A DNA stretch of 45,764 bases from a virus. The first letter of the stretch is position 1, and each line of letters begins with the position of its first letter. Both the position numbers and the translations under genes were made by a program. Location of the stretch: the IMG/VR virus record IMGVR_UViG_3300006052_000013. One strand, written 5' to 3'. The notes under the pieces are model-generated. The model saw only the letters and a program-made list of their open reading frames with translations. It was not told the origin of the DNA and searched no databases. This document shows positions 1,284 to 39,025 of the stretch, one piece after another.

Positions 1284-1922
1284 TTAAAGTGACTCCCCCA
1301 AGATTTCCGCCAACCGCGGCGGTTGGTAATTAGGACCCTTGCCGCCGACTCCCACCTTCTGGCCATACTTCATTCCCGGAACATTCGATATGGTAGGAAC
1401 GGCCTTGGTCATGTTCGAGCGATGAATCTCGCGGAACACCGCGTCGAATGGGATCGACCAGGCGATCGCCCCGGTTACCAGGGCATTAAACATCGTTCGA
1501 AGACAGATTTCTACTCGATCCAAAGATTCTGGGTCCTCCGGATTGGTACTCATGATCGCCTCATGCACGACACATGAAAGAGTCCCGAGTTGTGCAGACA
1601 AAATATGTATGAGATGGCCCGCGGGAAACATCTCAAAAACATTTGCCGTTCCCCGGTTCATTCCGTAGGCGATCAGCGTTCCCATGATAACATACCCCAG
1701 GTCCCCCATCGCATCCGCGATTTCAAGGCGGTCATCGGCGAGGGTCGCCGCGGCCAACTCTCCCAATTCTTCGGTAATCAACCGAAGACGTAACAGTACC
1801 ACCGTGATGGGAATCGGCCCGCGGTCAGATCGCCGAAATTGATTGTACTTATCCTGAAATTCTTTCAAAAGGTCTTCATAGGATTGATGCATGTCTTTCT
1901 CCTTTTTTGGATTTCCTCCCAC
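1284..1922 (-). CDS. MazG-like nucleoside triphosphate pyrophosphohydrolase
   Basis: ITEELGELAAA and LEIADAMGDLGYVI are MazG-type helices. Confidence 0.55.
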   Translation of the reverse strand: MGGNPKKEKDMHQSYEDLLKEFQDKYNQFRRSDRGPIPITVVLLRLRLITEELGELAAATLADDRLEIADAMGDLGYVIMGTLIAYGMNRGTANVFEMFPAGHLIHILSAQLGTLSCVVHEAIMSTNPEDPESLDRVEICLRTMFNALVTGAIAWSIPFDAVFREIHRSNMTKAVPTISNVPGMKYGQKVGVGGKGPNYQPPRLAEILGESL

Positions 1923-2338: not shown

Positions 2339-2619
2339 TTTCCCTCTGCGTAGAAACGGTGCTTTACCGTGGGGTCTTGAAGTTCAAAGTAATCCACGTA
2401 AACCCAGTCGGGGCGGCCGGGTACCGGCCGCGAGTTTTGATAGAGACTTCGTGCGCAATCCGGATGCAACCAGGCATTTTTACCGTTAAATCCCGGACCC
2501 ACGTACTCCATCTTCTTCAAAATAATGCCGAGACAGACGGGGCAAAAAGATGCTCGTTCTGCACGACCTTGTGATGGATTAGCCAACAGCATGCGCCGTG
2601 GCTTTTCTTTGTCGCTCAT
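2335..2619 (-). CDS. small Zn-finger protein (94 aa)
   Basis: CPVCLG...HPDC. Confidence 0.45.
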   Translation of the reverse strand: MSDKEKPRRMLLANPSQGRAERASFCPVCLGIILKKMEYVGPGFNGKNAWLHPDCARSLYQNSRPVPGRPDWVYVDYFELQDPTVKHRFYAEGK

Positions 2620-2870
2620 TTATTCTCCTTCCTAAGATATTTTTGAATACATTTTTTGAACCTGTTGACGGCAAGGCCAAACTTGTAATTCAGCCGATCC
2701 AACTGCGCCTTATTCATGGTCTTCGCGCGGTTGTTGAGAATCTCCATCGCCTCGCACATCTTTTCGAGGTCAATGTCGTCCTTGTCGACGGCCTTGGCCA
2801 ACTCGCCACCAGTAAAAATTTTGTCATTTGATCCAAATGCACCAGGAAATGCACCCCATTGCTTATTCAT
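2616..2870 (-). CDS. hypothetical protein (84 aa)
   Basis: ORF; stop/start overlaps its neighbour. Confidence 0.45.
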   Translation of the reverse strand: MNKQWGAFPGAFGSNDKIFTGGELAKAVDKDDIDLEKMCEAMEILNNRAKTMNKAQLDRLNYKFGLAVNRFKKCIQKYLRKENK

Positions 2871-2882
2871 ATTTAACCTCTT

Positions 2883-3272
2883 TTATAAGGCAGCCGCCGC
2901 CGGTCGCCTTATTGGTATTGGTACGTTTCTTTTCCTTCCTCTTGTAGAGGTGCCATAATGAGGCGTTGTTTCGCCCAACTCTTTGAGAGATGCAGATGTT
3001 TTTAATTTGATACGATCGTCGTCATGGGTCCATCCAGTAAATCTGGAAAGCATCGTTCTAACGTCGTTCATACACACAGCATTCATGTTGCCCCAAAGAA
3101 TTCGAAAGCGAAGTTGACCATCTACAATCGTTTTATCAAAAATTTGACGATTATCCCGTTGCAATTCTTCAATTTCATCCCACCATTTCATCGCCAGTTC
3201 TTCATTGACATCTAATTCGCAATGTACAACAATCGCTAGTTTATCTTTTCCTCTCACTTTGCCTCCTTCCAA
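2883..3272 (-). CDS. hypothetical protein (129 aa)
   Basis: ORF. Confidence 0.45.
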   Translation of the reverse strand: MEGGKVRGKDKLAIVVHCELDVNEELAMKWWDEIEELQRDNRQIFDKTIVDGQLRFRILWGNMNAVCMNDVRTMLSRFTGWTHDDDRIKLKTSASLKELGETTPHYGTSTRGRKRNVPIPIRRPAAAAL

Positions 3273-5146
3273 TTCGCCCCGGTCTTTGCTTCCCAGAGAA
3301 TTGGAATTCTGAAATTGAAGTCCTGGGTGTTCAGCAACTCGTCCATATTTTTCAGATTCACTGGATCAGGGTCCTGATCACCATCAAACTCATCGTGAAC
3401 TACGAAACGCTCCGTATAATTTAACACCTTTCGCTCGCGGTGAACGATAAAAATTTTCTTTTTCATTACGTCGGCCGCGGTACCCTGGAGGATACGGTTG
3501 AGTGCCGAGTGCGGCTTATAGGCAATCTCCTCCATCAATCTGATCTTGGGGTCCTGACTGGATGGCTTCGTGAATTTCGCCCGCCGTCCCATAAAGGTCT
3601 TTACCCATCCTCGGTTCTCCGCCAGTTTTGTGGCCTGCCGAAGTAGCCTTCCCGCCTCGGGAAACTCGCTTTCGTAAGCATCGACGAACTTATCCGAGAT
3701 GCTTTGCAAAATGCCCAGTTGCAGGGCGATCTTCACCCGTCCGGCCCCGTACACCTTGGAAAAATTGATGGTCTTGGCCGGTTGCCGGTCGAAGTCCGGA
3801 ATCACGAGACGAATCAGGTCCCGAACCATATCATGAAAATCGACCCGCGGATTATCCCCGTATGCCTTATTTAGCTTTGGGGAATTGGCGTAGTGGGCAA
3901 ATAAGCGAAATTCAATCTGTGCCGCGTCGGCGCAGAGCCAAACTTTTCCGGGGGAGGGAATAAATAGTTCCCGGATTAACCAGTCGGGTCCCACGTCTCG
4001 AATCTGATCCTTAGTCCGCATGATCTGTTGGATATTGGCGCCGGGGATACCCTCGCCCGGACTGGCGGAAGAAAAGCGGCCACTGACCGTGCCCTTGTCA
4101 TCATTATTCGCCCGGAGTTGGTGCAGACTATACCGAAGAATATTTTTGTCATCCAGGGCCTTGAGATACTTCTTCAAATACTTAGACAATAATGAGGCGA
4201 TACGACGTGCCTTGACCGCAATTTGAATCTCGGGATTCGGAAGTTTGGCCAGATAGTCTCCCTCAAAACTATCCTGGCCCTTGTCGGTCCGGGGCGGGTC
4301 TATTCCCAAATAACGAAACATTCTTGACATGTCGGTGGAAGCATCGGGATTGACCCGGAATCCGACCCGTCGGTACAGTTCCATAATCAATTTATGGTAG
4401 GCGGCCTCGGCCTCCCGGACCCAACGCTCCAACTTAGGCCGGTCGATGAGCGCGCCGTTCCGTTCCATTGTGACCACGGCAAAAATGATGGAATCTTCCA
4501 AGTCAAGTACTTTATCCAGGTCATCTGACTTGATTGAATTTTTCAGTTTGCTTTCGATTCCATACCGCATTGCCATATCGAGTTGATAGACCCGTTGGGC
4601 ATCTATCTCGGCGTATGGCCCGACCATCGCGGCCGGCATATCGGCAATTTGGGACTTGTCATTTTTCCCGAGTTCCTGATCCTTTCCCACGATGCCCAGG
4701 ACGTCATTACACAAAATCTCTAAATTGAACTTGCGCCGGTATTCATCCAATAATGCCGCCTGGTAAGATACGTCATGGCACCGGTTACCGAGGGCCTCCA
4801 GATCAATACCCCAGTTATGAGTGACGTGGGTATCATACTTGGCATTTAACCAGGATATATCCTTGTCTCGGATTTCGCGTTCAAACCAGCGTTTTACCAG
4901 GCGTTCATCGAGGTTCCCTCCCCCGGCGTGACCAAAGGGAAGATACCATTTGTTTCCATCCTCCGTGTAAAAACTGTAACCCACGGGGCGGGCCGTGAAG
5001 GGATTCTTACTGGTGGCCTCGGAATCGGCCCACAACCACTTATACTTGCTCAGGTCGGGGAGAGACGGGGCGGTCCATTTCACGCCGTCCGATCTTTCCG
5101 CAAACCGAGCAAACATGTTTCCCGGCCTTACCGTGGGTAACTTCAT
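3254..5146 (-). CDS. DNA polymerase, family A (Pol I-like)
   Basis: Motif B RQPAKTINFSKVYGAG and motif C VHDEFDGD. The start was chosen at the ATGA overlap with the deaminase stop. Confidence 0.85.
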   Translation of the reverse strand: MKLPTVRPGNMFARFAERSDGVKWTAPSLPDLSKYKWLWADSEATSKNPFTARPVGYSFYTEDGNKWYLPFGHAGGGNLDERLVKRWFEREIRDKDISWLNAKYDTHVTHNWGIDLEALGNRCHDVSYQAALLDEYRRKFNLEILCNDVLGIVGKDQELGKNDKSQIADMPAAMVGPYAEIDAQRVYQLDMAMRYGIESKLKNSIKSDDLDKVLDLEDSIIFAVVTMERNGALIDRPKLERWVREAEAAYHKLIMELYRRVGFRVNPDASTDMSRMFRYLGIDPPRTDKGQDSFEGDYLAKLPNPEIQIAVKARRIASLLSKYLKKYLKALDDKNILRYSLHQLRANNDDKGTVSGRFSSASPGEGIPGANIQQIMRTKDQIRDVGPDWLIRELFIPSPGKVWLCADAAQIEFRLFAHYANSPKLNKAYGDNPRVDFHDMVRDLIRLVIPDFDRQPAKTINFSKVYGAGRVKIALQLGILQSISDKFVDAYESEFPEAGRLLRQATKLAENRGWVKTFMGRRAKFTKPSSQDPKIRLMEEIAYKPHSALNRILQGTAADVMKKKIFIVHRERKVLNYTERFVVHDEFDGDQDPDPVNLKNMDELLNTQDFNFRIPILWEAKTGANWKEAK

Positions 5147-5727
5147 AGAATCGAGTCTTTGCAAGGATACAAATAAAAACAAGCACTATCAATTACTTCC
5201 GTGGCATCTTTTAATGGATCGTGAAAAGCATTGGTAAGAATTCCACCGTTCTCTCTAACCCACAGGGTGTTTCCAATTCTCAATTGCCGGACGTTGTCCG
5301 GAGTCATTGAATGCTTTGGAAAAGATAAAAGAACCAAACCCCGGCGATCTCCGGGGTAATCTTCCAAAGCCACGATTCTTTTAATCGGCGTGTTGACTAT
5401 AGACTTTGCACAATTGAAACATGGAAAATTTGTGCAGTACATCGTCCAGGCTAAGTCTAGGCGATGACACGTAAGAATCGCATTTTGTTCTGCGTGCGTT
5501 GCCCAACAGGCCGTGTTTTCATTGCCAGAATCTCCGGGGGTTCGTTCCCCGGTGCAGGGGCTTCCTTCTGTTCCACAATGCGGTACACCCGAGCCAATTC
5601 CATTATATCCAGAAGATAGGATGGCCCCTCGAAGATCGGTGATAATGGCCCCGGTCTTTCGCCGGACACACGTGGCCCGTTCGGCCACCAATCGAAGGTG
5701 CCGAGTCCAGTATTGATCTATGTTCAT
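5143..5727 (-). CDS. dCMP (deoxycytidylate) deaminase
   Basis: HAEQNAI...CTNFPCFNCAK zinc-binding deaminase motif; ATGA overlap with the upstream gene. Confidence 0.8.
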   Translation of the reverse strand: MNIDQYWTRHLRLVAERATCVRRKTGAIITDLRGAILSSGYNGIGSGVPHCGTEGSPCTGERTPGDSGNENTACWATHAEQNAILTCHRLDLAWTMYCTNFPCFNCAKSIVNTPIKRIVALEDYPGDRRGLVLLSFPKHSMTPDNVRQLRIGNTLWVRENGGILTNAFHDPLKDATEVIDSACFYLYPCKDSIL

Positions 5728-6557
5728 TTTCTCTCCTTCAAGATTGCAAGACACTTGTCGCTGCTTCCGGAGTGCAAGGCATCGGCGTATGCTTGCCAGG
5801 ATTTTGGCAAATTGGCAATATTGTGTAAAGTAAATTGGGCGTAGTCACGATATCCCAGATCGGGTAACCGCGGACTAATGACCATTTCCCCGGCCGGCGC
5901 CAACGCACAAGCGGCCGCCTCTTCCCAGTTATTTTGGTACAGGTGGGAAGAACCGAGATTCAAAACCAGGCTTCCGGGTTCTATTTTTAACTGCCCCGCC
6001 AGGCCATTAATAATCTGGCAAAAATTGAACACGTCGTGGGGAATTCCCAACCAGGCGTCGCTGGAACGCATATTAAAAATTCCATGTAGGTATTTGTCCC
6101 GAATCAAAAACTGACATGAAATTGTGCATGGAATATCTTTGGATCGACTTGGCATCGGGGTCCATATCGTTGCCACGGCCTGACGTGAGGATTCGTCGTG
6201 TTCTAATTGATGCAGAACGTAGTCCCATTGTTTGTGCAAGCGTGGCCCGTAGGCCCCGGCGAACACCCGGCCGTCATCCGAGTACTTGCAAATTTGCGAA
6301 TTGTACAGGGCCACGGTACCCACGTCTTCCCGGCCCGCGACGATCCATAGCCATTCTGCCAACATAAAGCGGTAGTTCAATTTTCTCATTGGAATATTCA
6401 TCACATTCCGGCGCACGTCGGAGATACCCAGACGAACTCCGATGAGTTCCTTGGTCATCATTTTGACTCGGCCAATCTCTACCATTTTGCCGCGGGTCAA
6501 AATCTCGTGTAACAGTAGGGGGTACAATTGATCGATGCTCGGCGCATTTATTTCCAT
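5724..6557 (-). CDS. ThyA-family pyrimidine hydroxymethylase or thymidylate synthase-like enzyme (possibly a dCMP hydroxymethylase)
   Basis: IPCTISCQF...MRSSDAWLGIPHDVFNF...SSHLY aligns to the ThyA core (PCH, RSxD, LGLPFN). Asp replaces the substrate-specifying Asn. Confidence 0.7.
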   Translation of the reverse strand: MEINAPSIDQLYPLLLHEILTRGKMVEIGRVKMMTKELIGVRLGISDVRRNVMNIPMRKLNYRFMLAEWLWIVAGREDVGTVALYNSQICKYSDDGRVFAGAYGPRLHKQWDYVLHQLEHDESSRQAVATIWTPMPSRSKDIPCTISCQFLIRDKYLHGIFNMRSSDAWLGIPHDVFNFCQIINGLAGQLKIEPGSLVLNLGSSHLYQNNWEEAAACALAPAGEMVISPRLPDLGYRDYAQFTLHNIANLPKSWQAYADALHSGSSDKCLAILKERK

Positions 6558-7462
6558 TTGAATTCCCTCACCTCTCTAAGTTTGTTGACAAATTCTGACC
6601 GGCGCTTTTGATGAAACCGGAAGAAACAGGCCGGGCGCATCAAGGATACAAAAGGTATGTCGGCCTTCCGGCAGGCCTCCTGGGCACTTTCTCCGAAGGC
6701 CAGGGCCACGGTCACTCCTCTCAGACGATCTGAGACCTGCCGAATATCCCGCGCATTTCCCTTGCGCGAAAATGTGTTGGTAAACATCAACTCATCTTCG
6801 TGATAGCCCGCCTCCCACAGGGCCTCGTTCAAGAATCGCGACGAATTTTTGGAATTGAAGAAAGGAAAATCTGTCTCGGTCCCATTGGTTCGTTCACCAA
6901 TTATCAGAAATCGGGCCGAGGGACATCCGATGGCCCAGGCCGGAAACGTTTCTTTGTTCATATCTCCCGACTTGAAATAATTCAGATACCAATTTTCAAT
7001 AGATATCTGAGTGTAGTCGAAGGTATGGTGGTAGGCCGATAGTCCCATAAACCGATGGTAACAATCTTTGAACTTACTCGCACTGCGCAGATAATCGTCC
7101 CCGGCCTCAAATTTCTTTTTCCAGTTCTGATAACATATCTCCCACGGCGGAGCGGCGATCACACACCTCACCGCCTGCGACCGGAATACCCGCCGGAACA
7201 TACGCATGCCGTAATAACCAACCCGATCATTATTCCGGGCGATGGGACCATAGATCATTTCCCCCAGATGAAACCGGTCAAAGACCACCGGCGATCGGCT
7301 ATGCATGGCCTTCCATAACTTTGCGGCGTAGTACTCGATCATGTCACCCTCGGCCGGCGGTGGTCCCTCATGAAAATATCTGAATCCCTTTTTAACAAGA
7401 TAGTTACACAAAGTCGTTTTTCCGGCGCCGTCCGGACCCTCAATAATCAATACTGGTGGCAT
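6548..7462 (-). CDS. P-loop deoxynucleotide kinase with a C-terminal UDG-like (family 4-like) domain
   Basis: Walker A EGPDGAGKTT; C-terminal IIGERTNGTETDFPF...FLNEAL resembles the GExPGxxE..PF..G..L motif. Confidence 0.5.
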   Translation of the reverse strand: MPPVLIIEGPDGAGKTTLCNYLVKKGFRYFHEGPPPAEGDMIEYYAAKLWKAMHSRSPVVFDRFHLGEMIYGPIARNNDRVGYYGMRMFRRVFRSQAVRCVIAAPPWEICYQNWKKKFEAGDDYLRSASKFKDCYHRFMGLSAYHHTFDYTQISIENWYLNYFKSGDMNKETFPAWAIGCPSARFLIIGERTNGTETDFPFFNSKNSSRFLNEALWEAGYHEDELMFTNTFSRKGNARDIRQVSDRLRGVTVALAFGESAQEACRKADIPFVSLMRPACFFRFHQKRRSEFVNKLREVREFKWK

Positions 7463-7711
7463 TTACTTATCCTCCTGTGTATGACATATACAAGGACAGT
7501 CTAATTTTGTACACATTTTATGTATGTGCGGGGGATTTTCTTTTTTACAACGAAAACTAAGTTTACCTTGGTAACCACCTTTTCCGCGTGGATTCGCAAC
7601 GCTGGGCAGTTTTGGACCCTGCTCACCCGGGGCATTCCCCTGGTACTTACCCCTTTTCGATGATCGCATATGCGCCAACATAGCAAAGTCTGTTTTAATT
7701 TCTTTGGTCAT
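7463..7711 (-). CDS. small Cys-rich protein (82 aa)
   Basis: CTKLDCPCICH; ATGA coupling with the helicase. Confidence 0.4.
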   Translation of the reverse strand: MTKEIKTDFAMLAHMRSSKRGKYQGNAPGEQGPKLPSVANPRGKGGYQGKLSFRCKKENPPHIHKMCTKLDCPCICHTQEDK

Positions 7712-9216
7712 AGTTCGTATACCAATTGATCATTTGGCATCAAAGTCAATAATTCTTCTTTGGCCCGCGTTATACCCACGTACCAAACACGATGCTCGGA
7801 ATCCTCGTCTCGTACCAAGGATTCAAAACTTTTCCGTAACATGCAAACATCCAGAATAACCCGGTCTGCCTGACCTCCCTTTGACTGATGTATTGACATA
7901 AGCCGGGTGCGGGGATGTAAGAGGGCATCCCAACCATGCGCCGCCACGATTCCCAGGGTATAGTTAATCCCATCGGCCTTCAATACTTTTGCCAATAACC
8001 GGGGCCATTCTTTTCCCTCGGGCATCTTCTGTAATACGGCATCCGGCCGGATCAATTTTTCTTTCAAATTTTTTGCCTCGGGTTTCAGGTTATCTACTCC
8101 GACCAGGGCCGATACGGCGCGGGCCTCGGCCGGAGACCACAAGGCATTCGTAGTTGTTTTATGCCATGCCGTCAATACATTACGCACCTCCGGGCGCGCC
8201 AAGATAGAATGAGGCCCATCAAAAGGTATACCGGCGGCTTCCATTTCCTGGGCTAACAACATGCCGCGATAATGATTGCGAAAGAGCACAAAAGTGGAAG
8301 TGTCAATAAATTCCTTTTTCTCAATCGTATCTATGGCGTGAATTTCTCTTACCTGGCCTTCTTCGTCACGGGGCCGTAACGGCTTTTTGACCCGTGCCCG
8401 TACTTTCTGGATCACCTGTTGCGCCTGGGTAAAAACGCGGCGTGGCAGACGATAAGTAATGTCTAAAAATTGTTGTTCATCATATCTCTCTTTGATGAAT
8501 CTTTCGGGCGAGGCGCCGGCCCACTGAAAGATGGCCTGGTCATCGTCCCCGGCGAGGTACCATCGGGCGGCCTCGGAACCAAGTCGGTGAATCACATCCC
8601 ACTGCAATACTGATAAATCCTGGGCCTCGTCGACGAACATCACGTCGATGGGCAGGGGTTTTCCCACGGCCAGAAAGGTGGTGAGAATATCGGTATAGTC
8701 ATACATGGCCTCGGAATCTTTCCACCTTCGGTAAGAATCGGTAAACCACTTGGCAAAGTAGTGGTCGATATTGATATTGACATCTTGCAGAGATTCTTTT
8801 AGGCCGATACGGCGGTGCCGGCCCCGATGGTTCAACTGCAATAACATGTCGGCCTGGGTTGCCATCGGTTGGTACTCGGGTATCTCCCATTCTTCCGCGG
8901 CCCAGGGGTCGATAGGTAAATGATTGATCTTGATACCGATGGATCGGCCAAATTCTTTTACATCACGGGTCTGGACCATTTGCCCCTGGGCAAAACTCAT
9001 TTGTCGGTAACAAATGGAATGGATAGTTCGCAGGTATGGCAACTCTTCCTGGATCTTACCGCTCCGGCCGAGGGCCTCAAATTTTGCCGACCGAGTGAAG
9101 GTCAAAAAGGCGATCCGGTCCGCGGGAGTATGAACTAACTCCTTTTCAAATAATTCCAACAGAGTACGTGTTTTACCCGTGCCGGGGGGACCGTAAAGTT
9201 TAAGTACCTGAGACAT
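7708..9216 (-). CDS. SF1 DNA helicase (UvrD/PcrA-like)
   Basis: YGPPGTGKT, VDEAQDLS and SIHQSKGGQADRV motifs. Confidence 0.75.
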   Translation of the reverse strand: MSQVLKLYGPPGTGKTRTLLELFEKELVHTPADRIAFLTFTRSAKFEALGRSGKIQEELPYLRTIHSICYRQMSFAQGQMVQTRDVKEFGRSIGIKINHLPIDPWAAEEWEIPEYQPMATQADMLLQLNHRGRHRRIGLKESLQDVNINIDHYFAKWFTDSYRRWKDSEAMYDYTDILTTFLAVGKPLPIDVMFVDEAQDLSVLQWDVIHRLGSEAARWYLAGDDDQAIFQWAGASPERFIKERYDEQQFLDITYRLPRRVFTQAQQVIQKVRARVKKPLRPRDEEGQVREIHAIDTIEKKEFIDTSTFVLFRNHYRGMLLAQEMEAAGIPFDGPHSILARPEVRNVLTAWHKTTTNALWSPAEARAVSALVGVDNLKPEAKNLKEKLIRPDAVLQKMPEGKEWPRLLAKVLKADGINYTLGIVAAHGWDALLHPRTRLMSIHQSKGGQADRVILDVCMLRKSFESLVRDEDSEHRVWYVGITRAKEELLTLMPNDQLVYEL

Positions 9217-9382
9217 CGTCGATTCCCTTGGCCTTTGCCTGGATGTTTCCTTGAATTTTGGTAAGGCATATTTGGCATATACAAAAAACGTGTTCCCAGC
9301 CCTTTAACTTGAACTCACCCACCAGGCCGGGATTCCCGCATTGTCCACAATATCCGAGAAATGTCCGCATGTGTTCAAGCAT
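9200..9382 (-). CDS. small Zn-binding protein (60 aa)
   Basis: CGQCGN...CICQIC; RBS AAGGAGG. Confidence 0.4.
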   Translation of the reverse strand: MLEHMRTFLGYCGQCGNPGLVGEFKLKGWEHVFCICQICLTKIQGNIQAKAKGIDDVSGT

Positions 9383-9948
9383 CAGAATCCTCCTTCGGTT
9401 CTCACCGGCCGATCTTTCATATACATCTCGATCATTTCAATTGGCCGAGGTTTATACGTTTTGGGGAAAGACCCGATCACGGCGTCCATCCCGACGTCAC
9501 AAGTCCGTTGGCTCATGGGATAGATCAATTTTGATCCGTGGCAGTGACCATGCAAAAGCCACGATCCCCGGCGATCTCCGTCCCATGAAATATGCGGATA
9601 ATGAGAAAGGCAGATTTTGTGATGGTTCCATTTCAATTCGTGGTAATCTTTTACCCACTCAAAAGGAAGGTCTTTGATTCGTTCGGAATGATCGTGGTTT
9701 CCCCGGACTAAATGAACGCGGCCATTCAAAAGGCTCATCACATCACGACGTGTCTCGGGAGTTGAATCAAAAAACATGTCTCCTAGGACATAAACGTCAT
9801 CTATGGGCCGGACGGTTTCGTTCCACAAAGTAACAAGGCCTGAGTTCATTTCTTCGGCCGTCTTCCAAGGTCGATTGCAAAACCCGATGATCTTCTCGTG
9901 GAAGAAATGCGGGTCGCTGTAAAAGAAAATCGACATGTTTACCCCCAA
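9382..9948 (-). CDS. metallophosphoesterase (calcineurin-like)
   Basis: VYVLGDMFFD...VRGNHDH. Confidence 0.7.
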   Translation of the reverse strand: MGVNMSIFFYSDPHFFHEKIIGFCNRPWKTAEEMNSGLVTLWNETVRPIDDVYVLGDMFFDSTPETRRDVMSLLNGRVHLVRGNHDHSERIKDLPFEWVKDYHELKWNHHKICLSHYPHISWDGDRRGSWLLHGHCHGSKLIYPMSQRTCDVGMDAVIGSFPKTYKPRPIEMIEMYMKDRPVRTEGGF

Positions 9949-10108: not shown

Positions 10109-11638
10109 TCACATTTCCTCGCGTATGGCGTTGAACTCGGGGGCGGTATAATCTTCTGTTTGGATATCCAATTTGTCAATGGGATACATCCATACTTTTA
10201 CCGTCCGACCTTTGATCTTCGTTTCTTTGAACTGGGCACCTTGCTTGTAAAGCATGGTATAAAGCACGTTACTATCAATAAACTGTCGACGATGATGTTT
10301 AAGAAAGTTTTGCAGGTCCACGGCCTTAAAGCAAATATACTTCTCCAGCTCTACCGGCGTGCCCATGAGTATGGCCTCCTCACCACGTTGAGAATTCTTG
10401 AACCGAGTCAAGAAATCCATAACACTGTTCATGATGGAACCCTCTTCACTGGCGTCATCCGGGGCCGCGATCACCTCTTGTTTAAGATGCAACTCATGCC
10501 GCATGGCCCGCCAACGATCAGATTTCATGGGTGGAATACAGATATTCATGATGTCTTCGACGCGTTGCATAAGACGGTCGAAATTGTAAAATTCCTCATT
10601 AGTCAGGGTCATCTCCCCGCCGTTAATCTCCACCATAAATTGGGGAGGATCGGTATCAATTTTTCTGAGGTGAGATATCAAGAAATCTCCCAGACTTCCA
10701 CTTTCTTTCCATGGCATGTGGGTATAACCGAATGGCAACGTATGACAAACCGGACGGTCACAATGTGATAAGATCGGTTCTTGTTCACAACGATATTGGT
10801 ACTTGGTGCCTCCGACGGACTTCAATAACCGGACCATTTCTTCTCGCGGGAGGGGCGGTTGACAAAACTTTTCATTGAATTCTAAAAACTTCTCTTCCCA
10901 AACTTTGGGGTGGGCCTTGCGCAAGAAAACTCCAAAATTGAACATACCATCGTTGCGCTTTCCCTCGGGCAACCCATGTTCCGCAAGATACTGAAGACAT
11001 GGCGGCATCACCGGACCCGAGGCCGGCGTGATCTTCGGGGCCTGTCCAATGATTACCAGTTCTTGTTCAGAAACTACCTGGTCATTTCCGTCCCAGTACA
11101 CCACCGAGTTCAAAAACTCTTCCAGTGTCATGGCCCCCTCGGGACCAATGGCATACCGATTGGTGTTGTCTCCATTAAAGTACGGTAAATTGATCCAGTT
11201 GCCCTGCCCGCTCTTATTAACCTGAATCTGTTTGGGAAAAACCTCCGACTTGGGATAACCCAGGATACCGGCCCAACGTTTTAATACGGGGATAATTTTA
11301 GATGGCTTGAAACCTTGCTCAGAAAAAAGATATAGATGTGCCCCGCCGGACTTCGACCGGCAAACCGTCAACGGCATCTTATGTTGAATAACTTTGGTTA
11401 AGAGTTGTCCGTGGTTTATCGTATCCACGTCTATATCAATGGCCGCGAATCGACAGGTACCATCTTTCAAAATCGGTACCAATCCTAAACCTCGCACCCC
11501 GGCGAGGTGTGCCCGGTAATCCTCCGGGGTGGCGGGACCGTCGGCCGTGTGATGATCGACGTTCCCGCCTTCCCGAATGGTTTGGACCCCGTGGGAGTAT
11601 TCGCTGCCCGCAAATAATTCTGCAAACAGTTTTGCCAC
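10109..11638 (-). CDS. bifunctional primase-polymerase (PrimPol)
   Basis: AAIDIDVD (DxD) and SGGAHLYLF (sGxGxHxyF); C-terminal Cys/His cluster; GTG start with GAGAGG RBS. Confidence 0.7.
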   Translation of the reverse strand: MAKLFAELFAGSEYSHGVQTIREGGNVDHHTADGPATPEDYRAHLAGVRGLGLVPILKDGTCRFAAIDIDVDTINHGQLLTKVIQHKMPLTVCRSKSGGAHLYLFSEQGFKPSKIIPVLKRWAGILGYPKSEVFPKQIQVNKSGQGNWINLPYFNGDNTNRYAIGPEGAMTLEEFLNSVVYWDGNDQVVSEQELVIIGQAPKITPASGPVMPPCLQYLAEHGLPEGKRNDGMFNFGVFLRKAHPKVWEEKFLEFNEKFCQPPLPREEMVRLLKSVGGTKYQYRCEQEPILSHCDRPVCHTLPFGYTHMPWKESGSLGDFLISHLRKIDTDPPQFMVEINGGEMTLTNEEFYNFDRLMQRVEDIMNICIPPMKSDRWRAMRHELHLKQEVIAAPDDASEEGSIMNSVMDFLTRFKNSQRGEEAILMGTPVELEKYICFKAVDLQNFLKHHRRQFIDSNVLYTMLYKQGAQFKETKIKGRTVKVWMYPIDKLDIQTEDYTAPEFNAIREEM

Positions 11639-11650
11639 GCGATCCTCTCG

Positions 11651-12472
11651 TTAGAAGCCGGCACCCGTCTCATCCGGTGCCTCTTCGGTTTCCATACCGG
11701 TCATATCGGCCGTGATGTTGACATCCTTTAGTGAGTCGTAGGCCGTCTTCAGTTGCCGGAAAAGATCGGGCGGCACAAATCCCCGCGGCTTGATCGTCGG
11801 TGCGAACCAGCTCTGTTGTCCCTTGGTAACCTCGGTGGAAATCAATTCATAAACCCGGGCAAACATGGGGGTATTCGGGTTTAACTTTACCAGGGAATTC
11901 CATTGTTTCGACACTTTCAGACCGGTAGATTTGAGCGAGATGATGATCGGAATATCGGCCACCTCGCAAAAGAAGATACCCCCGGAGGCCGGACGGTCAA
12001 TTGGTTTTACGATCGCCGCGGGCCGATTGTGCAATTTGTCACAGGTGGGCCGGTGGTTATCCGAGAATTTGGCATGTTCACAGACCGTCGTTCCGTCCAA
12101 CTCTTCGCATTTGGGAGAAAGGAACCCCCCATCTTTTCCATTGAATGATTGGCACTCGATCCCACCCCCCTCGCTCATGGGATGAAACTTGATGCGCTGC
12201 TTGGAAAAAAGAATAGGAACCACCAAGACAGACTCTCCGTAGATTTCTCCGGTGATCGTGTTAAAGAACTGCCCATCGGTGAGGTTGGGGATGTGGTTGG
12301 CATCCGATTTCTTCTTTTGTGGGGTAAGAGACTGGCACAAACCAAGCCGCGGATAGGTAACATCCTGGCGCTCAATTTGCTCGGTCCCCTCACGACCCGT
12401 GATGTAATCTGGAACGGCCAATTTTCCGGTTACCTGTTCCAGGGCCTTATCTTCTTGTGTTGCTTTCGCCAT
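11651..12472 (-). CDS. putative ssDNA-binding protein (gp2.5-like?)
   Basis: Acidic C-terminal tail ending in Phe (EEAPDETGAGF), as in T7 gp2.5. The fold is not recognisable by eye. Confidence 0.3.
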   Translation of the reverse strand: MAKATQEDKALEQVTGKLAVPDYITGREGTEQIERQDVTYPRLGLCQSLTPQKKKSDANHIPNLTDGQFFNTITGEIYGESVLVVPILFSKQRIKFHPMSEGGGIECQSFNGKDGGFLSPKCEELDGTTVCEHAKFSDNHRPTCDKLHNRPAAIVKPIDRPASGGIFFCEVADIPIIISLKSTGLKVSKQWNSLVKLNPNTPMFARVYELISTEVTKGQQSWFAPTIKPRGFVPPDLFRQLKTAYDSLKDVNITADMTGMETEEAPDETGAGF

Positions 12473-12475
12473 TGT

Positions 12476-12979
12476 TTACTCTCCTTGACTCTCTTTTGCT
12501 TTTCTGCGCTTCAACTTTGTTTTCAGGAAGGCCGCGGCGCCCGGCGGAACTTCCTGACCGGTTTCGAGTCGTTCTTTAACGATCGAGGCCGCGGTCTGGT
12601 AATTTACGGTAAAAACGTCGTTAAGTCCATTTGTTTTCAGCCAGTTATAGAAACTTTCTCGGTCTTGTACCGATACATATACGGCCTGTTCCTGGTAAAA
12701 GGTCCGGCCGTCCGGCAGGGTAAACTTAGTGATACCCTCATCATCGAGAATGTCCACTACCATCTGGGTAATGGCCTCTTGCATAACCGCATTTACCGCC
12801 AGATCATCGTTGAGTTTATCCTCCTCTTTTCTGAGTTCGTCAAAGCGCAGGGCCAACTTTACCTTGTCGGCCAGGCCCTCGTCCCGCAGGTCTGATTTCG
12901 CCCGATCTACCTTTTCCTGATAGGTAGGTTCGTTGCTGTACCGTACCATGTTTTTCTTGTCTATTTTTGATTTTGCCAC
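12476..12979 (-). CDS. hypothetical acidic protein (167 aa)
   Basis: ORF; GTG start. Confidence 0.45.
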   Translation of the reverse strand: MAKSKIDKKNMVRYSNEPTYQEKVDRAKSDLRDEGLADKVKLALRFDELRKEEDKLNDDLAVNAVMQEAITQMVVDILDDEGITKFTLPDGRTFYQEQAVYVSVQDRESFYNWLKTNGLNDVFTVNYQTAASIVKERLETGQEVPPGAAAFLKTKLKRRKAKESQGE

Positions 12980-13212: not shown

Positions 13213-13920
13213 TCACCTCCCCAACTTCAAATTGTCGATCTGCCGGGACTCGGGTACGATATCGTCATACAAGAGTGGAATCCTTTGTTGAAATTCTTTC
13301 AATAACGGAATCGTGATCTGCCGCATTTGCGGATGGGCCTCTTTGGAAGTACGCATCAAAAAGAAATGCCGCCAACTGCGCAAATTTGCCGTGGTCACGA
13401 TACGCGAGGCCAGGGCATTGGGAAACACGCTCCGGGCCTCCTGCGGACGCCAACCTTTTTTGAGTAACGCGCAATACATATTTTCACAGTTTTGAATTAT
13501 CCATAACCAGTCCCGATTGTATTGACAGAGAGGAAAACCCGGACGATGGTGTATTCCGGATACGGTGGGTTCATCTCCCGTCCGGCAATATTCGCAATCA
13601 ACTCCCGGTATGGGGTAGATAAAGGCCGGCGGCATCTTCTTCTCATAATTGACAAACCTGGTACTCTCCTGGGTATAGGAGGCGAGTCGATGCCGTACCC
13701 ATTCGTGGGTTATACCCCGGTCCATCACGGCATCCACCGAGGCGGTGACGTGTTCTACCACTGACCAATCGCCATGGTCCATGACCACCGTTTTAATAAA
13801 CCGTTCGGTGTTAGGCGAAGCATCCTCCGATCGATGACTGATCCGGGCACACCACTCGATGTGCCGGAGTGGCTCCGGGGTCAGTACCATGATTTTAGCG
13901 TAGGGTTGAATTATTTTCAT
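13213..13920 (-). CDS. thyX: flavin-dependent thymidylate synthase ThyX
   Basis: ThyX signature RHRLASYTQESTRF (RHRxxSxxxxSxRF). Confidence 0.8.
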   Translation of the reverse strand: MKIIQPYAKIMVLTPEPLRHIEWCARISHRSEDASPNTERFIKTVVMDHGDWSVVEHVTASVDAVMDRGITHEWVRHRLASYTQESTRFVNYEKKMPPAFIYPIPGVDCEYCRTGDEPTVSGIHHRPGFPLCQYNRDWLWIIQNCENMYCALLKKGWRPQEARSVFPNALASRIVTTANLRSWRHFFLMRTSKEAHPQMRQITIPLLKEFQQRIPLLYDDIVPESRQIDNLKLGR

Positions 13921-28998: not shown

Positions 28999-29031
28999 CC
29001 TTACCACGGGTATTACCCCGCGGCCCTCGGT
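28999..29031 (-). repeat. short cassette (inside the C-terminus of the sigma-like gene)
   Basis: cttaccacgggtattaccccgcggccctcgg. Confidence 0.5.
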
Positions 29032-30362
29032 TGTTCTTCGGTGACCGGCGCCATCCAGTGCAGTTTTCCATCCGATTCCAGGATTAATTCTTTATCTTGG
29101 CATCGACGGATGATCGAATAGGCCTGACCATTTGTGGTACCCGCGGTCATCATCTTCTGAACTAATTCGTTCTTAGGAAGAGGCCCATCGGCGAGTATCT
29201 GTTTTAAGACCGGTTCCCAATATCCTCGTGGTGAACGAGTCTGCGGGGCATTTCCATTGACCTCATCATGGGCCGTCGCATTAATCGACTTCTTTCCCGT
29301 GATAATATCGTGGGCACTTGTCAGTTGTTCAATCACCGCGGTCCACTTACGGGCCTCGGCCTCGGATTCCGCGGCCTGCCGGGTATAAAACTGTACCTTG
29401 CGATGGGCATCAGATATCAAAGACTCGATGGTCGGTGGTGATCCACTTGGTATTTGTTCCATTGTTTTCTCTCCTTGTTGTTTTAGTTGAAAGAGATAGT
29501 TTTGATGAACAATCTCTTCCTGGGTATACTGCCGAACCGGCCCCGGTGCTGTGACCGTCCGGGGGGGACGGAGATTCACGGGGGTTTTTGCCAGAAGTCC
29601 GTGCGACGTAAATATTTGATTCGGGGCACGAGGGTCGCGTCCGCTCAGATGGTAATAACTACCCAGTTCCGTTTCATTGAATCTGGACGCCCCCGCATTC
29701 CGTGAACTTCGTATTTGCGTCGGTGGTGGACTCCCGATGTGTTCCCGGGCGGCCGCGGCGACCAGTTTTTCGCGCCGCAACCTTCGTTTTTTCTTGCTCA
29801 TTGATTTGCTCATTGATTTGCTCTCCCACAACACTCGAAGATCACTCAAACCGTGTGATTGATAGGCCTTTACGGCCCCGACGGACAAATTTAAAATTCC
29901 GGCGGTTTCTTCCAAAGTTTTTTCTTCCAGAAATCTAAGAAACAACACGCGGCGCCGGCTCCTATTCAAATACGGTAACAAGCGCAAAAAATGCTCACGT
30001 GTGATCCAGGAATCTATGGTTTTATCCGGAGTATCCGGCAAATCCAGGGTGTTTCCATCTTCATTGATGGGATTATCCAAGGATACTTCTGAAAGATTGT
30101 TCTTTCTTCGTAGGTACATCAAAAATTCCCGGTGCGCAATTTGATGCAACCAGGAACTTAATTTGGCCTCACCTCGAAAATCGCCGATGGCCAGAAAGGC
30201 CTTCGTAAAGGTCACCTGGGCCAGTTCTTCCACGGCGTCTTCATTCAGTTGCCAATATTTGCGCAAAGTTTTTTTTACCCGCGATAACTGGTCACGATAT
30301 ATTTGGGAGAACGCGTCTTGATCGCCGGATTTTGCACGATCTAATAATTCTTTTTCTTCCAC
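29013..30362 (-). CDS. ECF-type sigma-70 family factor-like protein with a roughly 270-aa C-terminal extension
   Basis: Region 2: DAFSQIYRDQ...FLAIGDFRGEAKLSSWLHQIAHREFLMYLRR. Region 4: LRFLEEKTLEETAGILNLSVGAVKAYQSHGLSDLR. GTG start with an AAGGAGAA RBS. Confidence 0.6.
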   Translation of the reverse strand: MEEKELLDRAKSGDQDAFSQIYRDQLSRVKKTLRKYWQLNEDAVEELAQVTFTKAFLAIGDFRGEAKLSSWLHQIAHREFLMYLRRKNNLSEVSLDNPINEDGNTLDLPDTPDKTIDSWITREHFLRLLPYLNRSRRRVLFLRFLEEKTLEETAGILNLSVGAVKAYQSHGLSDLRVLWESKSMSKSMSKKKRRLRREKLVAAAAREHIGSPPPTQIRSSRNAGASRFNETELGSYYHLSGRDPRAPNQIFTSHGLLAKTPVNLRPPRTVTAPGPVRQYTQEEIVHQNYLFQLKQQGEKTMEQIPSGSPPTIESLISDAHRKVQFYTRQAAESEAEARKWTAVIEQLTSAHDIITGKKSINATAHDEVNGNAPQTRSPRGYWEPVLKQILADGPLPKNELVQKMMTAGTTNGQAYSIIRRCQDKELILESDGKLHWMAPVTEEQPRAAG

Positions 30363-37398: not shown

Positions 37399-37431
37399 CT
37401 TACGGGTCACCGAAGTGACCCACCCTCGTTA
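37399..37431 (-). repeat. short cassette (GGTCACCgaaGTGACC subtype)
   Basis: cttacGGGTCACcgaaGTGACCCaccctcgtta. Confidence 0.6.
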
Positions 37432-38991
37432 GTCGTTCTGTTTTTCTTTGTACTCCATAGACCGCACGATGACCCCGAACAACAGGTCGCCCAGGCGGTG
37501 CAACATACCCGGAATCACGATCGCGTTGGGGTTGTGGGAGGTTCCCAGAAGGGCGCCAAACCCAAAGTAACCTTTGTGCAACCGGAGTTCCGGGTCGGCC
37601 AGTCCGGGAGACTTTTGAATTTCTCCGTCGTAGTCGTATTGCATTTCATTGTGCCGGAAACTGCAACCGAAGTTCACCAGATCGTCGGGGCGATTCTCAT
37701 AACCGGTCAGGTTATAAAACTCATCCACTTTGGTTTCGGTCTGGGAACGACCCCGCCGGATCACAAAGTCTTTTATGATCCGGTCCCACCCGGTGACATC
37801 TGACACGATGCGCCCCGTCCGCAGTGCCCGGTAGTAATCGGCCCGGTTCTGGGGAAGATCGCCCTCGTAATCTACCAGGTTCGAGGCAGAAAGATCACGA
37901 AATACCCGGTACTTCGTGTTTTTTTGGATGATGTAATCATCCGGATTAAATACGGAGTCCTTGGGATAGTGGGTCAATACCGAATAATCGGTATCAATTC
38001 CTCGATCCTGGGCATCGTGAAGTTGCCGGAGCATCTCGGCGGTAGAGTTTCCCAGGCCAATAAAGAGAAATTTCTTTCCCTTAATTTGCGGGTAAGTGAG
38101 GCGCTTTTGCCAACGGTTACCGGCGTGGGTGACCTCCGCAGATGTCACCATACGGTGGCGATCCGAGAGGTTTTTCGGTTTTCCCAGTCCCAGGCAGTTG
38201 ATGACGATGGGGTACTCCTTAAAACTTTGACCACGGTCATAAACCCCGTGGGCAAGATTGTTCGGAGTAACCGTGGTGACGTCGTTGGTGATAACGTTTA
38301 ATGAATTGGCGTTCTGGATATTTTGCAGAAAATCCCGTACCTCCGATCCTTCGCCGGGCGCCGGTTCCAGGGCATACTCGCCCAGGACCAATCTACGAGG
38401 ATTGTTTCGACTCCCGCCTTTGATATCTTCCCGTGACCAGATTCCAAATGGTTTGCCCTTTTCATAAAGAGTTACATTTTTAAATCCGGTGCGACTCAGG
38501 CCATATCGTACAATTTGGCCCGCCGCCCCACCACCGATGATGGCAATGGGTGTGTTCCCAATGTCCAAATTGATCACGTTATAAAACGTGGACAAACGTC
38601 CGGCGATACCACTCCCAAAAAAATTATTGGAAGTATTTACCGGAGAGACGGCCAAGGCGCGATCAATTACTTGATTTTGCTCGGGCGTTCCCCGGTAAGT
38701 AACACAGTCGGCGGGTTTCGAGAACAACGAAACTTCACCCAAATAATCCAACACCGGAAATTTTTGGTATATTTCATCTCCGGAAACATTACGCAAGACG
38801 TAACTTCCCAGAAACTTTCCCAGCATTTTCCGACGGCCCATTTCAACAATGGCCTGGTTACTCCAACCTTTATCGCGCGTCATACGTTTTAACACGGATA
38901 TCGGATTGGATAACATTATTGGACTAACGACGTTGTACGACTTCATCGCTTCAACTGCCAAGAACGACTTCAACATTTCTTGGTGATTCAT
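37429..38991 (-). CDS. FAD/NAD(P)-binding oxidoreductase (flavin monooxygenase-like, 520 aa)
   Basis: Two Rossmann motifs: IAIIGGGAAGQIV and FLFIGLGNSTAEM. The chosen start has an AGGAGAAGAACAA RBS. Confidence 0.55.
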   Translation of the reverse strand: MNHQEMLKSFLAVEAMKSYNVVSPIMLSNPISVLKRMTRDKGWSNQAIVEMGRRKMLGKFLGSYVLRNVSGDEIYQKFPVLDYLGEVSLFSKPADCVTYRGTPEQNQVIDRALAVSPVNTSNNFFGSGIAGRLSTFYNVINLDIGNTPIAIIGGGAAGQIVRYGLSRTGFKNVTLYEKGKPFGIWSREDIKGGSRNNPRRLVLGEYALEPAPGEGSEVRDFLQNIQNANSLNVITNDVTTVTPNNLAHGVYDRGQSFKEYPIVINCLGLGKPKNLSDRHRMVTSAEVTHAGNRWQKRLTYPQIKGKKFLFIGLGNSTAEMLRQLHDAQDRGIDTDYSVLTHYPKDSVFNPDDYIIQKNTKYRVFRDLSASNLVDYEGDLPQNRADYYRALRTGRIVSDVTGWDRIIKDFVIRRGRSQTETKVDEFYNLTGYENRPDDLVNFGCSFRHNEMQYDYDGEIQKSPGLADPELRLHKGYFGFGALLGTSHNPNAIVIPGMLHRLGDLLFGVIVRSMEYKEKQND

Positions 38992-39025
38992 TTGTTCTTC
39001 TCCTGTATAAGCCCGATTCATCGGA

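Follow-up and report, generated by a model that had tools for sequence, protein, structure and literature searches.

Genes at the locus

We analyzed a 45,764-nt stretch of viral DNA, hereafter the window, from IMG/VR record IMGVR_UViG_3300006052_000013, which covers 45.8 kb of the 99.6-kb contig ERZ27247953 k141_4512440 and carries the early/replication module of an uncultured tailed phage. We focused on a cassette of three genes on the minus strand, transcribed in the order 7462..6548 (304 aa), 6557..5724 (277 aa), and 5727..5143 (194 aa), which encode a nucleotide kinase fused to a uracil-DNA glycosylase (UDG)-like domain, a homolog of the thymidylate synthase ThyA, and a dCMP deaminase. A first-pass annotation, made from the sequence alone, had described these genes as a T4-like set for hydroxymethyl-pyrimidine nucleotides. 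Its coordinates for all three genes and for a separate ThyX gene agreed exactly with the open reading frame (ORF) list, although it omitted that the cassette lies on the minus strand. The features of the cassette are as follows:

6548..7462, minus strand: 304-aa fusion of a nucleotide kinase and a UDG-like domain; predicted 5-hydroxymethyl-dCMP (dNMP) kinase with a uracil-type DNA glycosylase module
6959..7462, minus strand: kinase domain of the fusion, residues 1 to ~168; P-loop EGPDGAGKT, HEGPPP, DRFHLGE, Tyr71, Arg76, Arg91
6563..6955, minus strand: UDG-superfamily domain of the fusion, residues ~170-300; motifs IIGERTN, DFPFF, FTNT, MRPACFFRFH
5724..6557, minus strand: ThyA-family enzyme of 277 aa, predicted dCMP 5-hydroxymethylase; PF00303, E = 3.3e-21
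5143..5727, minus strand: dCMP deaminase of 194 aa with a ~60-aa C-terminal extension; PF00383, E = 7.5e-15; phrog_174, E = 1.1e-34; HAEQNAI and PCFNCAK motifs, in line with the earlier assignment

The kinase stop codon TAA falls 10 nt within the ThyA-homolog ORF, and the ATG of the latter is preceded by GAGGTGAGGG, a Shine-Dalgarno-like string. The stop codon of the ThyA homolog and the start codon of the deaminase share an ATGA overlap, and GAAGGAGAG precedes this junction. These overlapping ORFs point to translational coupling of all three genes, as had been proposed. On the 5′ side, the cassette is preceded by a UvrD-type helicase gene (9216..7708) and then an 82-aa ORF; on the 3′ side it is followed by a family A DNA polymerase gene (5182/5116..3254). 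Identical proteins were found on independent assemblies, the longest being a 99,551-bp ENA contig, and the cassette genes are therefore not assembly artifacts. A blastn search of 5143-7462 against 50,697 phage records returned no match; thus, the phage has no close cultured relative by DNA similarity.

The ThyA homolog carries a predicted dCMP hydroxymethylase signature

We aligned the ThyA homolog using MAFFT with E. coli ThyA, T4 gp42, the dUMP hydroxymethylases M6 gp58, SP10 gp188, and CP-51 gp100, the homologs from AXL3, PW916, and Manatee Spring virus, and 119 metagenomic homologs. In E. coli numbering, the protein carries Glu58, Tyr94, Arg126, Asp143, Cys146, Thr147, Met165, Arg166, Ser167, Asp169, Asp177, His207, and Tyr209. 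The catalytic machinery of the ThyA fold (Cys146, Glu58, Tyr94, His207, and Tyr209) is present in full and, together with the PF00303 match, bears out the assignment of this gene to the ThyA family. The first-pass annotation had further claimed that the motif LGIPHD places an Asp at the position of ThyA Asn177. HMMER aligned this Asp to the Asn of LGVPFN in the solved thymidylate synthase 7xyj and to an Asp of MilA, and in two MAFFT alignments it fell on E. coli ThyA Asn177 and T4 gp42 Asp179, confirming that the specificity position is occupied by Asp and not Asn. Residues at four positions compare as follows:

Window protein: Asp143, Thr147, Met165, Asp177
T4 gp42: Asp143, Thr147, Met165, Asp177
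dUMP hydroxymethylases M6, SP10, and CP-51: Asp143, Asn147, Asn165, Asn177
E. coli ThyA: Leu143, His147, Gln165, Asn177

At position 143, KDIPC in the window protein and SDFMC in gp42 both place an Asp three residues ahead of the catalytic Cys, a residue also found in the dUMP hydroxymethylases. One MAFFT run put a gap before Pro145, which shifted position 143; we counted position 143 back from the catalytic Cys without gaps, a register shared by the other alignment and by the convention of PMC13326640. Thr147, Met165, Asp169, and Asp177 were present in all 119 metagenomic homologs.

Published work gives these positions their meaning. Asn177 specifies dUMP and its replacement by Asp specifies dCMP, a bulky hydrophobic residue at position 143 goes with methyl products and Asp or Glu with hydroxymethyl products, and D169N is the hallmark of the flavin-dependent 5-hydroxy-dCMP synthases from RB69 and DLP3 (PMC13326640). 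Ser167 and Arg126 select deoxyribose, while MilA and BcmA, which carry Ala and Lys, prefer CMP (PMC5175136), and positions 177 and 147 best discriminate cytosine-modified from unmodified metagenomic contigs (PMC8670742). The gp42 pattern at positions 143, 147, 165, and 177, with Asp169, Ser167, and Arg126 retained, supports the earlier suggestion of a dCMP hydroxymethylase, and by every sequence criterion applied the protein is a predicted dCMP 5-hydroxymethylase.

The closest solved relative was the CMP hydroxymethylase MilA (phmmer, 3.5e-25, 91.7 bits), with thymidylate synthases at ~1e-13. MilA, which belongs to the mildiomycin pathway (5b6d, 5jnh), shares Asp143 and Asp177 with the window protein but prefers CMP and has Ala and Lys at the sugar-selecting positions, where the window protein resembles the deoxyribose-specific enzymes; the context of MilA is antibiotic synthesis, whereas that of the window protein is viral replication. 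The PF00303 match stops at profile position 219 of 266 in both the ThyA homolog and T4 gp42. Because the identity to gp42 is only 28% over 113 residues, the predicted assignment is functional rather than phylogenetic, and the protein is not a close gp42 ortholog.

A nucleotide kinase is fused to a UDG-like domain

A search of 5.8 billion proteins yielded 55 full-length homologs of the fusion (283-326 aa), 35 of which were used for an alignment (A1). Two conserved halves emerged, the N-terminal one with an invariant P-loop EGPDGxGK, HEGPPP, DR(F/L)(H/A)xGE, Tyr71, Arg76, and Arg91. The P-loop, Asp62-Arg63 (the DR of DRFHLGE), Tyr71, and Arg76 show little or no variation, and residue 91 is Arg in 178 of 185 family members. 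Thymidylate kinases (TMPKs) have this layout at their mononucleotide site. The A1 profile matched SPbeta prophage YorR (2axp; 9.3e-10) and a family-4 UDG from T. thermophilus (2.4e-6). AlphaFold modeled the fusion as two domains in a confident and rigid arrangement (pTM 0.91), and the fold neighbors of the kinase domain are thymidylate kinases. The P-loop, DR motif, arginines of the nucleoside monophosphate (NMP) site, and TMPK fold place this half among TMPK/YorR-like NMP kinases. It is not a homolog of T4 gp1: it had no match to Pfam DNMK (PF21448), which gp1 itself matched at 3e-107, and hhalign gave a probability of 2.4% that covered the P-loop only. Thus, of the earlier description as a gp1-like P-loop dNMP kinase, the P-loop kinase stands and the likeness to gp1 falls, and the fused UDG domain had been missed altogether. 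The kinase may nonetheless do the job of gp1 despite the absent homology.

In the C-terminal half, residues 179-295 matched the UDG superfamily (Pfam PF03167) with 23.9 bits against a cut-off of 24.3, and both profile and fold comparison indicate a UDG fold resembling family 4. Conservation among 185 full-length members was high at Gly189 (181), Glu/Asp190 (180), Phe201 (175), Asn229 (182), His276 (181), Pro277 (184), Arg282 (181), and Phe283 (180), and HMMER aligned the conserved residues to motif A, the stacking Phe, the uracil-reading Asn, and motif B of T. thermophilus UDG. The window protein retains Gly-Glu190, Phe201, and Asn229, and its motif-B His is replaced by Arg276 (codon 6635-6637, minus strand), a substitution seen in the window protein only among the 185 members; its 78%-identical relative P0122 has His. 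Family-4 UDGs typically carry an Fe-S cluster. No Cys is conserved across the fusion family in alignment A1, and an Fe-S cluster is therefore unlikely in this half. Overall, pocket conservation across the family speaks for an active glycosylase that would read a uracil-type face (U, perhaps 5-hydroxymethyluracil, 5-hmU) and not cytosine. We also considered whether the domain could be an aGPT-Pplase, and rejected this, as aGPT-Pplases have a helix-hairpin-helix fold (PMC8989533). Some pyrimidine-modifying phages have active UDG domains, either joined to their family A polymerases or supplied in trans, that clear dU arising from dUTP pools (bioRxiv 10.1101/2025.03.26.645540). In those systems (SPO1, SP-10, SP15-like YerA41, and phiLo), the UDG is fused to or works with the polymerase, whereas the UDG of the window is fused to a nucleotide kinase.

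The fusion family tracks ThyA homologs with Asp177

When 1.84 billion representatives were searched with the profile (E ≤ 1e-30), the fusion family came to at least 1054 clusters at the 50% identity level, and the top 150 clusters encode proteins of ~280-360 aa that matched the profile essentially end to end. Among the 50,697 GenBank phage records, the family occurred only in AXL3, PW916, and one Manatee Spring virus. We then analyzed gene neighborhoods in 80 IMG/VR loci taken from an A1 profile scan. In 76 of these, a ThyA homolog begins where the kinase gene ends, in most cases with an overlap; one of the 76 ORFs runs off its contig, and every one of the 75 scorable homologs carries Asp177. 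These adjoining ThyA homologs span several ThyA clades, one of them with a dCMP-methylase signature. This signature is seen in locus L042 (10001-12069), where the gene after the kinase-UDG gene encodes a 454-aa ThyA homolog, 40% identical to E. coli ThyA, that is a predicted dCMP methylase with Leu143, His147, and Asp177. In locus L024 (10001-11984), a kinase-only gene lies near a ThyA homolog that resembles M6 gp58 and has Asp177, Ala143, and Asn147.

The fusion was found in 71 of the 80 loci, and the remaining nine carry the kinase alone in the same position, with no separate UDG domain within 10 kb. The kinase is therefore at the core of the partnership, with the UDG domain as an accessory to it. 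Since ThyA homologs of varied ancestry all have Asp177, the kinase tracks enzymes that modify C5 of dCMP, a behavior that would be expected of a dedicated kinase for 5-substituted dCMP. A dCMP deaminase gene follows the ThyA homolog in about half of the 80 loci. PolA, a UvrD-like helicase, an AEP primase, and an SNF2 helicase are syntenic in the closer relatives, and PolA lies downstream in the majority of related loci.

Our literature searches found no description of a kinase-UDG fusion, and the text of the MetaGPA paper mentions neither UDG nor thymidylate kinase. The family and its near-obligate pairing with cytosine-directed ThyA homologs are thus probably new with respect to the searchable literature. 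The finding is less surprising in that viromes were already known to be rich in ThyA cassettes with Asp177.

Cultured phages AXL3 and PW916 carry the same cassette

Stenotrophomonas phage AXL3 encodes an NTP pyrophosphatase (gp30), a 327-aa “thymidylate kinase” that is a homolog of the fusion (gp29), a ThyA homolog with Asp177, Thr147, and Met165 (gp28), and a dCMP deaminase (gp27); its ThyX (gp50) and PolA (gp41) are encoded elsewhere in the genome. Pseudoxanthomonas phage PW916 has the same cassette. Its kinase-UDG gene (L084, ~2346-3083) is unannotated in GenBank, as is that of Manatee Spring virus ctUtU524 (MW202621; L085, ~7073-7966). The order of the four genes in AXL3 and PW916 is that of the window, but protein identity is 29-39%, the published names are thymidylate synthase and thymidylate kinase, and the two phages have an additional gene. 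Directly upstream of the AXL3 cassette lies a gene for a class I SAM-dependent methyltransferase (gp31; L086, 3614-4438; Methyltransf_23, 2.2e-13), and PW916 likewise has one upstream (L084, 934-1758), by annotation only. This methyltransferase might further modify the base; tblastn detected no homolog of the AXL3 enzyme in the window.

Of 37 restriction enzymes tried on AXL3 DNA, only TasI (AATT) and Tru1I (TTAA) cut it, and none of the 35 whose sites include G/C did; the authors read the cassette as a dTMP pathway (PMC7504290). From the cassette, AXL3 DNA is predicted to carry 5-hydroxymethylcytosine (hmC) or a derivative of it.

Pathway partners in the window

Further genes that bear on cytosine modification lie elsewhere in the window:

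1284..1922, minus strand (gene caller start 1892, 202 aa): PRA-PH/MazG-type NTP pyrophosphohydrolase; PF01503, E = 2.9e-10
3254..5182, minus strand (gene caller start 5116, 620 aa): family A DNA polymerase with 3'-5' exonuclease; PF00476, E = 1.1e-46; PF01612, E = 4.1e-7
13213..13920, minus strand: ThyX, flavin-dependent thymidylate synthase, separate source of dTMP; PF02511, E = 1.4e-39; RHRLASYTQESTRF from residue 76
23815-24987, minus strand: C5 cytosine DNA-methyltransferase-like protein; PF00145, 7.7e-16; HPPCAAFS in place of PCQ, ESV in place of ENV, and QWRPR

The ThyX match and its motif RHRLASYTQESTRF corroborate the earlier report of a separate ThyX. The PRA-PH protein is homologous to AXL3 gp30 (1e-6), which itself matched PF01503 at 1.5e-14, and it is a natural candidate for a dCTP/dUTP pyrophosphatase, a functional analog of T4 gp56. 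On cytosine-modified contigs, PF01503 is found together with ThyA and dCMP deaminase (PMC8670742). These MetaGPA contigs (eLife 2021) resemble the window in Asp177, a changed position 147, and the co-occurrence of PRA-PH and dCMP deaminase. MetaGPA also pairs Asp177 ThyA with carbamoyltransferases (5-carbamoyloxymethyl-C), whereas no carbamoyltransferase was found in the window.

To look for decoration genes, we scanned the 46 ORFs of the window (75-851 aa) with Pfam, and the ten with no or marginal Pfam matches with PHROGs. No glycosyltransferase, carbamoyltransferase, or other hmC-decorating gene was detected in this set, in keeping with the earlier remark that no glycosyltransferase is visible, and the Pfam scans revealed no aGPT-Pplase or 5-hmdU DNA kinase (5-HMUDK) homolog. 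The ~4 kb beyond the left edge of the window hold only lysis genes and opposite-strand genes.

A proposed pathway to hydroxymethylcytosine DNA

We propose, with a probability of roughly 0.78, that this gene set replaces cytosine, at least largely, with hmC. The PRA-PH/MazG-type pyrophosphatase would first convert dCTP to dCMP. The ThyA homolog would then add the methylene group of CH2-THF (methylenetetrahydrofolate) to C5 of dCMP via Cys146 and, with Asp143 in place of a bulky hydrophobic residue, water would attack the exocyclic methylene to give 5-hydroxymethyl-dCMP (5-hm-dCMP), as the residue signatures suggest. Phages with hmC DNA such as T4 carry their own kinase (gp1) for the phosphorylation of 5-hm-dCMP. 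In the window, the fold, motifs, and strict synteny of the N-terminal TMPK-like domain point to it as the enzyme that would form the diphosphate, after which a host NDP kinase would produce the triphosphate and the phage PolA, which must accept the modified dNTP in such a pathway, would incorporate it. In parallel, the deaminase would convert dCMP to dUMP and ThyX would convert dUMP to dTMP. The UDG half would serve as a uracil-type (U, possibly 5-hmU) glycosylase beside the polymerase, encoded two genes downstream, and would remove pyrimidines slipped into DNA by the dUMP-rich pathway; we consider this its most likely role, and it is the least certain part of the proposal.

The scheme follows the logic and the set of activities of the T4 hmC pathway (gp56, gp42, gp1, Cd, and Td), and the ThyA homolog and gp42 share Asp143, Cys146, Thr147, Met165, Asp169, and Asp177 as well as the end point of the ThyA-profile match. 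In contrast to T4, the kinase of the window is not of the DNMK/gp1 type and is fused to a UDG, the pyrophosphatase is PRA-PH and not gp56-like, dTMP would come from ThyX and not Td, the genes are clustered and coupled whereas T4 genes 56, 42, and 1 lie apart, and no glucosyltransferase was found in the window. The label “T4-like gene set” thus holds for logic and fails for ancestry, given the TMPK/YorR-like kinase and a ThyA homolog nearer to MilA and M6 gp58; the cassette is best described as a predicted T4-like hmC pathway assembled largely from non-orthologous parts.

Several observations weigh against this proposal. All of the enzymatic assignments draw on residue signatures and synteny, and the low similarity to gp42 leaves the signature residues to carry the argument. 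The kinase falls outside DNMK, the one proven hm-dCMP kinase family; its fusion to a glycosylase finds no explanation in this analysis, and Arg276 in place of the motif-B His may weaken or change glycosylase activity in this phage. Similarity between the PRA-PH protein and gp56 is negligible (E = 0.044). The restriction resistance of AXL3 could reflect a guanine modification or a further derivative, and additional modification genes may lie outside the window, where more than half of the 99.6-kb contig is found. The C5-methyltransferase-like protein is hard to reconcile with complete replacement, as it would have no substrate if all cytosine were hmC. Its presence suggests partial replacement or another target, and the protein may target host DNA or a subset of sites, or have a different activity.

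Modified cytosines allow phages to escape restriction and CRISPR and expose them to modification-dependent defenses, and predicting them from sequence matters for phage therapy, for artifacts in metagenome sequencing, and for enzyme discovery. In environmental viromes the cassette is widespread, and its genes routinely go under the names “thymidylate synthase / thymidylate kinase”. If the proposal is correct, the kinase-UDG fusion would be a simple genomic marker for cytosine-modifying phages, and the kinase a candidate means of getting 5-substituted dCMPs into the DNA of heterologous hosts. The fusion also joins nucleotide supply to base excision for no evident reason.

Alternative explanations

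An unlikely but not negligible alternative gives the fusion a larger part. It would represent an undescribed bifunctional family tied to cytosine-C5-modifying ThyA homologs, in which the UDG fold is not a housekeeping module but either flips 5-hmC for the kinase or polices hmC-DNA, removing U, 5-hmU, or unmodified bases at the replisome in concert with nucleotide supply.

It is rather improbable that the ThyA homolog makes a different C5 product, either 5-methyl-dCMP as in XP12 or, in a flavin-dependent manner, 5-hydroxy-dCMP as in RB69 and DLP3. Asp177 defines only the cytosine substrate, N177D mutants of true ThyA reportedly give 5-methyl-dCMP (cited in PMC8670742), and 5-hydroxy-dCMP synthases also combine N177D with L143E (PMC13326640). 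A dCMP methylase is nevertheless at odds with Asp143, which marks the hydroxymethyl class and stands where a bulky hydrophobic residue would be expected, and with Thr147 in place of His; the L042 protein exemplifies the methylase-like signature in this gene context. The 5-hydroxy-dCMP synthases (RB69 gp48 and DLP3 gp80) are argued against by Asp169, retained in the window protein and its 119 metagenomic homologs, whereas all tested enzymes of that class carry D169N (PMC13326640).

We regard as quite improbable the alternative that the first-pass annotation had itself raised, a dUMP hydroxymethylase fed by the deaminase that would yield 5-hmU DNA as in SPO1 and M6, or its variant in which the deaminase turns 5-hm-dCMP into 5-hm-dUMP. 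The deaminase gene is indeed coupled to that of the ThyA homolog, related GenBank entries of PW916 and Agathobaculum phages bear the name “deoxyuridylate hydroxymethyltransferase”, and BLASTP scored M6 gp58 (65.5 bits) slightly above gp42 (50.8 bits). However, the reference dUMP hydroxymethylases have Asn at positions 177, 147, and 165, where the window protein has the Asp, Thr, and Met of gp42, and ThyX gives the deaminase an ordinary role. The cleavage of AXL3 DNA at AATT and TTAA and never at sites with G/C points away from replacement of thymine, and the window scans found no 5-HMUDK or aGPT-Pplase homolog.

An equally slim chance attaches to the fusion acting on DNA as a cytosine counterpart of the 5-hmdU DNA kinases, in which the UDG fold would flip 5-hmC or 5-hmU and the kinase would phosphorylate the hydroxymethyl group to start hypermodification. 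Fusion to a base-flipping fold with conserved pocket residues, the rigid two-domain model, and the methyltransferase genes beside the AXL3 and PW916 cassettes would suit such an enzyme, and P-loop kinases that act on 5-hmU in DNA, including their fusions to other modification enzymes, are known (PMC8989533). The 5-hmdU DNA kinases (M6 gp54, ViI gp67, and others) are likewise P-loop kinases encoded beside a pyrimidine hydroxymethylase in phages, but their similarity to the window kinase is confined to the P-loop: Pfam HMUDK_HMUD1 (PF18748), which M6 gp54 itself matched at 7.7e-18, gave no match, and hhalign to gp54 covered 23 P-loop residues. The fold neighbors of the window kinase are instead thymidylate kinases, with the mononucleotide-site motifs (DR, Tyr71, Arg76, and Arg91) conserved, and the window yielded neither an aGPT-Pplase partner nor a transferase able to use a phosphorylated base. 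Moreover, kinase-only versions hold the same position in nine loci, and the pathway would be left without a 5-hm-dCMP kinase. If 5-hmC were flipped and phosphorylated, the fusion would be an entry point to unknown cytosine hypermodifications.

An ordinary dTMP-supply operon of deaminase, thymidylate synthase, and thymidylate kinase with canonical virion DNA, as annotated for AXL3 and as the GenBank, JGI, and PHROG names (“thymidylate synthase”, “thymidylate kinase”) would have it, is hardly credible given Asp177, Asp143, and Thr147 in place of the canonical Asn177, Leu143, and His147, the 64 bits scored with the NCBIfam thymidylate synthase equivalog NF002497, whose cut-off is 327 (ThyA equivalog cut-offs are all >300), the redundancy of a second thymidylate synthase beside ThyX, and the restriction resistance of AXL3 DNA.

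Other features of the window

The 82-aa ORF between the helicase and kinase genes (7463-7711, minus strand) overlaps the helicase stop codon by 4 nt and ends directly before the kinase start; it has a Cys-rich C-terminus (CTKLDCPCICH), no family match, and no homolog in the 80 related loci. Positions 10109-12979 (minus strand) encode an AEP-type primase (PF22548, TOTE-system AEP domain) followed by homologs of Pam3 gp34 and gp33 (PF23977, 1e-36; PF23984, 5e-19). Among otherwise small ORFs lies the gene of a 530-aa protein (37429-39021, minus strand) for which PHROGs and NCBIfam gave nothing and Pfam only a weak Rossmann signature of the FAD/NAD(P)-binding type (PF13450 and PF01266, ~2e-3). The first 180 residues of a 449-aa protein (29013-30362, minus strand) contain sigma-70 regions 2 and 4, and a long uncharacterized C-terminal part follows. 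The 851-aa protein at 18149-20704 (minus strand) matched the Major Vault Protein shoulder domain (PF11978, 1.5e-26), which is unusual for a phage replication module, with a weak vault repeat match. Finally, a T4 Rnl1-like RNA ligase (PF09511, 3.3e-12; 22670-23818) and two calcineurin-like metallophosphoesterases (20914-21519 and 9382-9948), all encoded on the minus strand, could together constitute an RNA-repair set.

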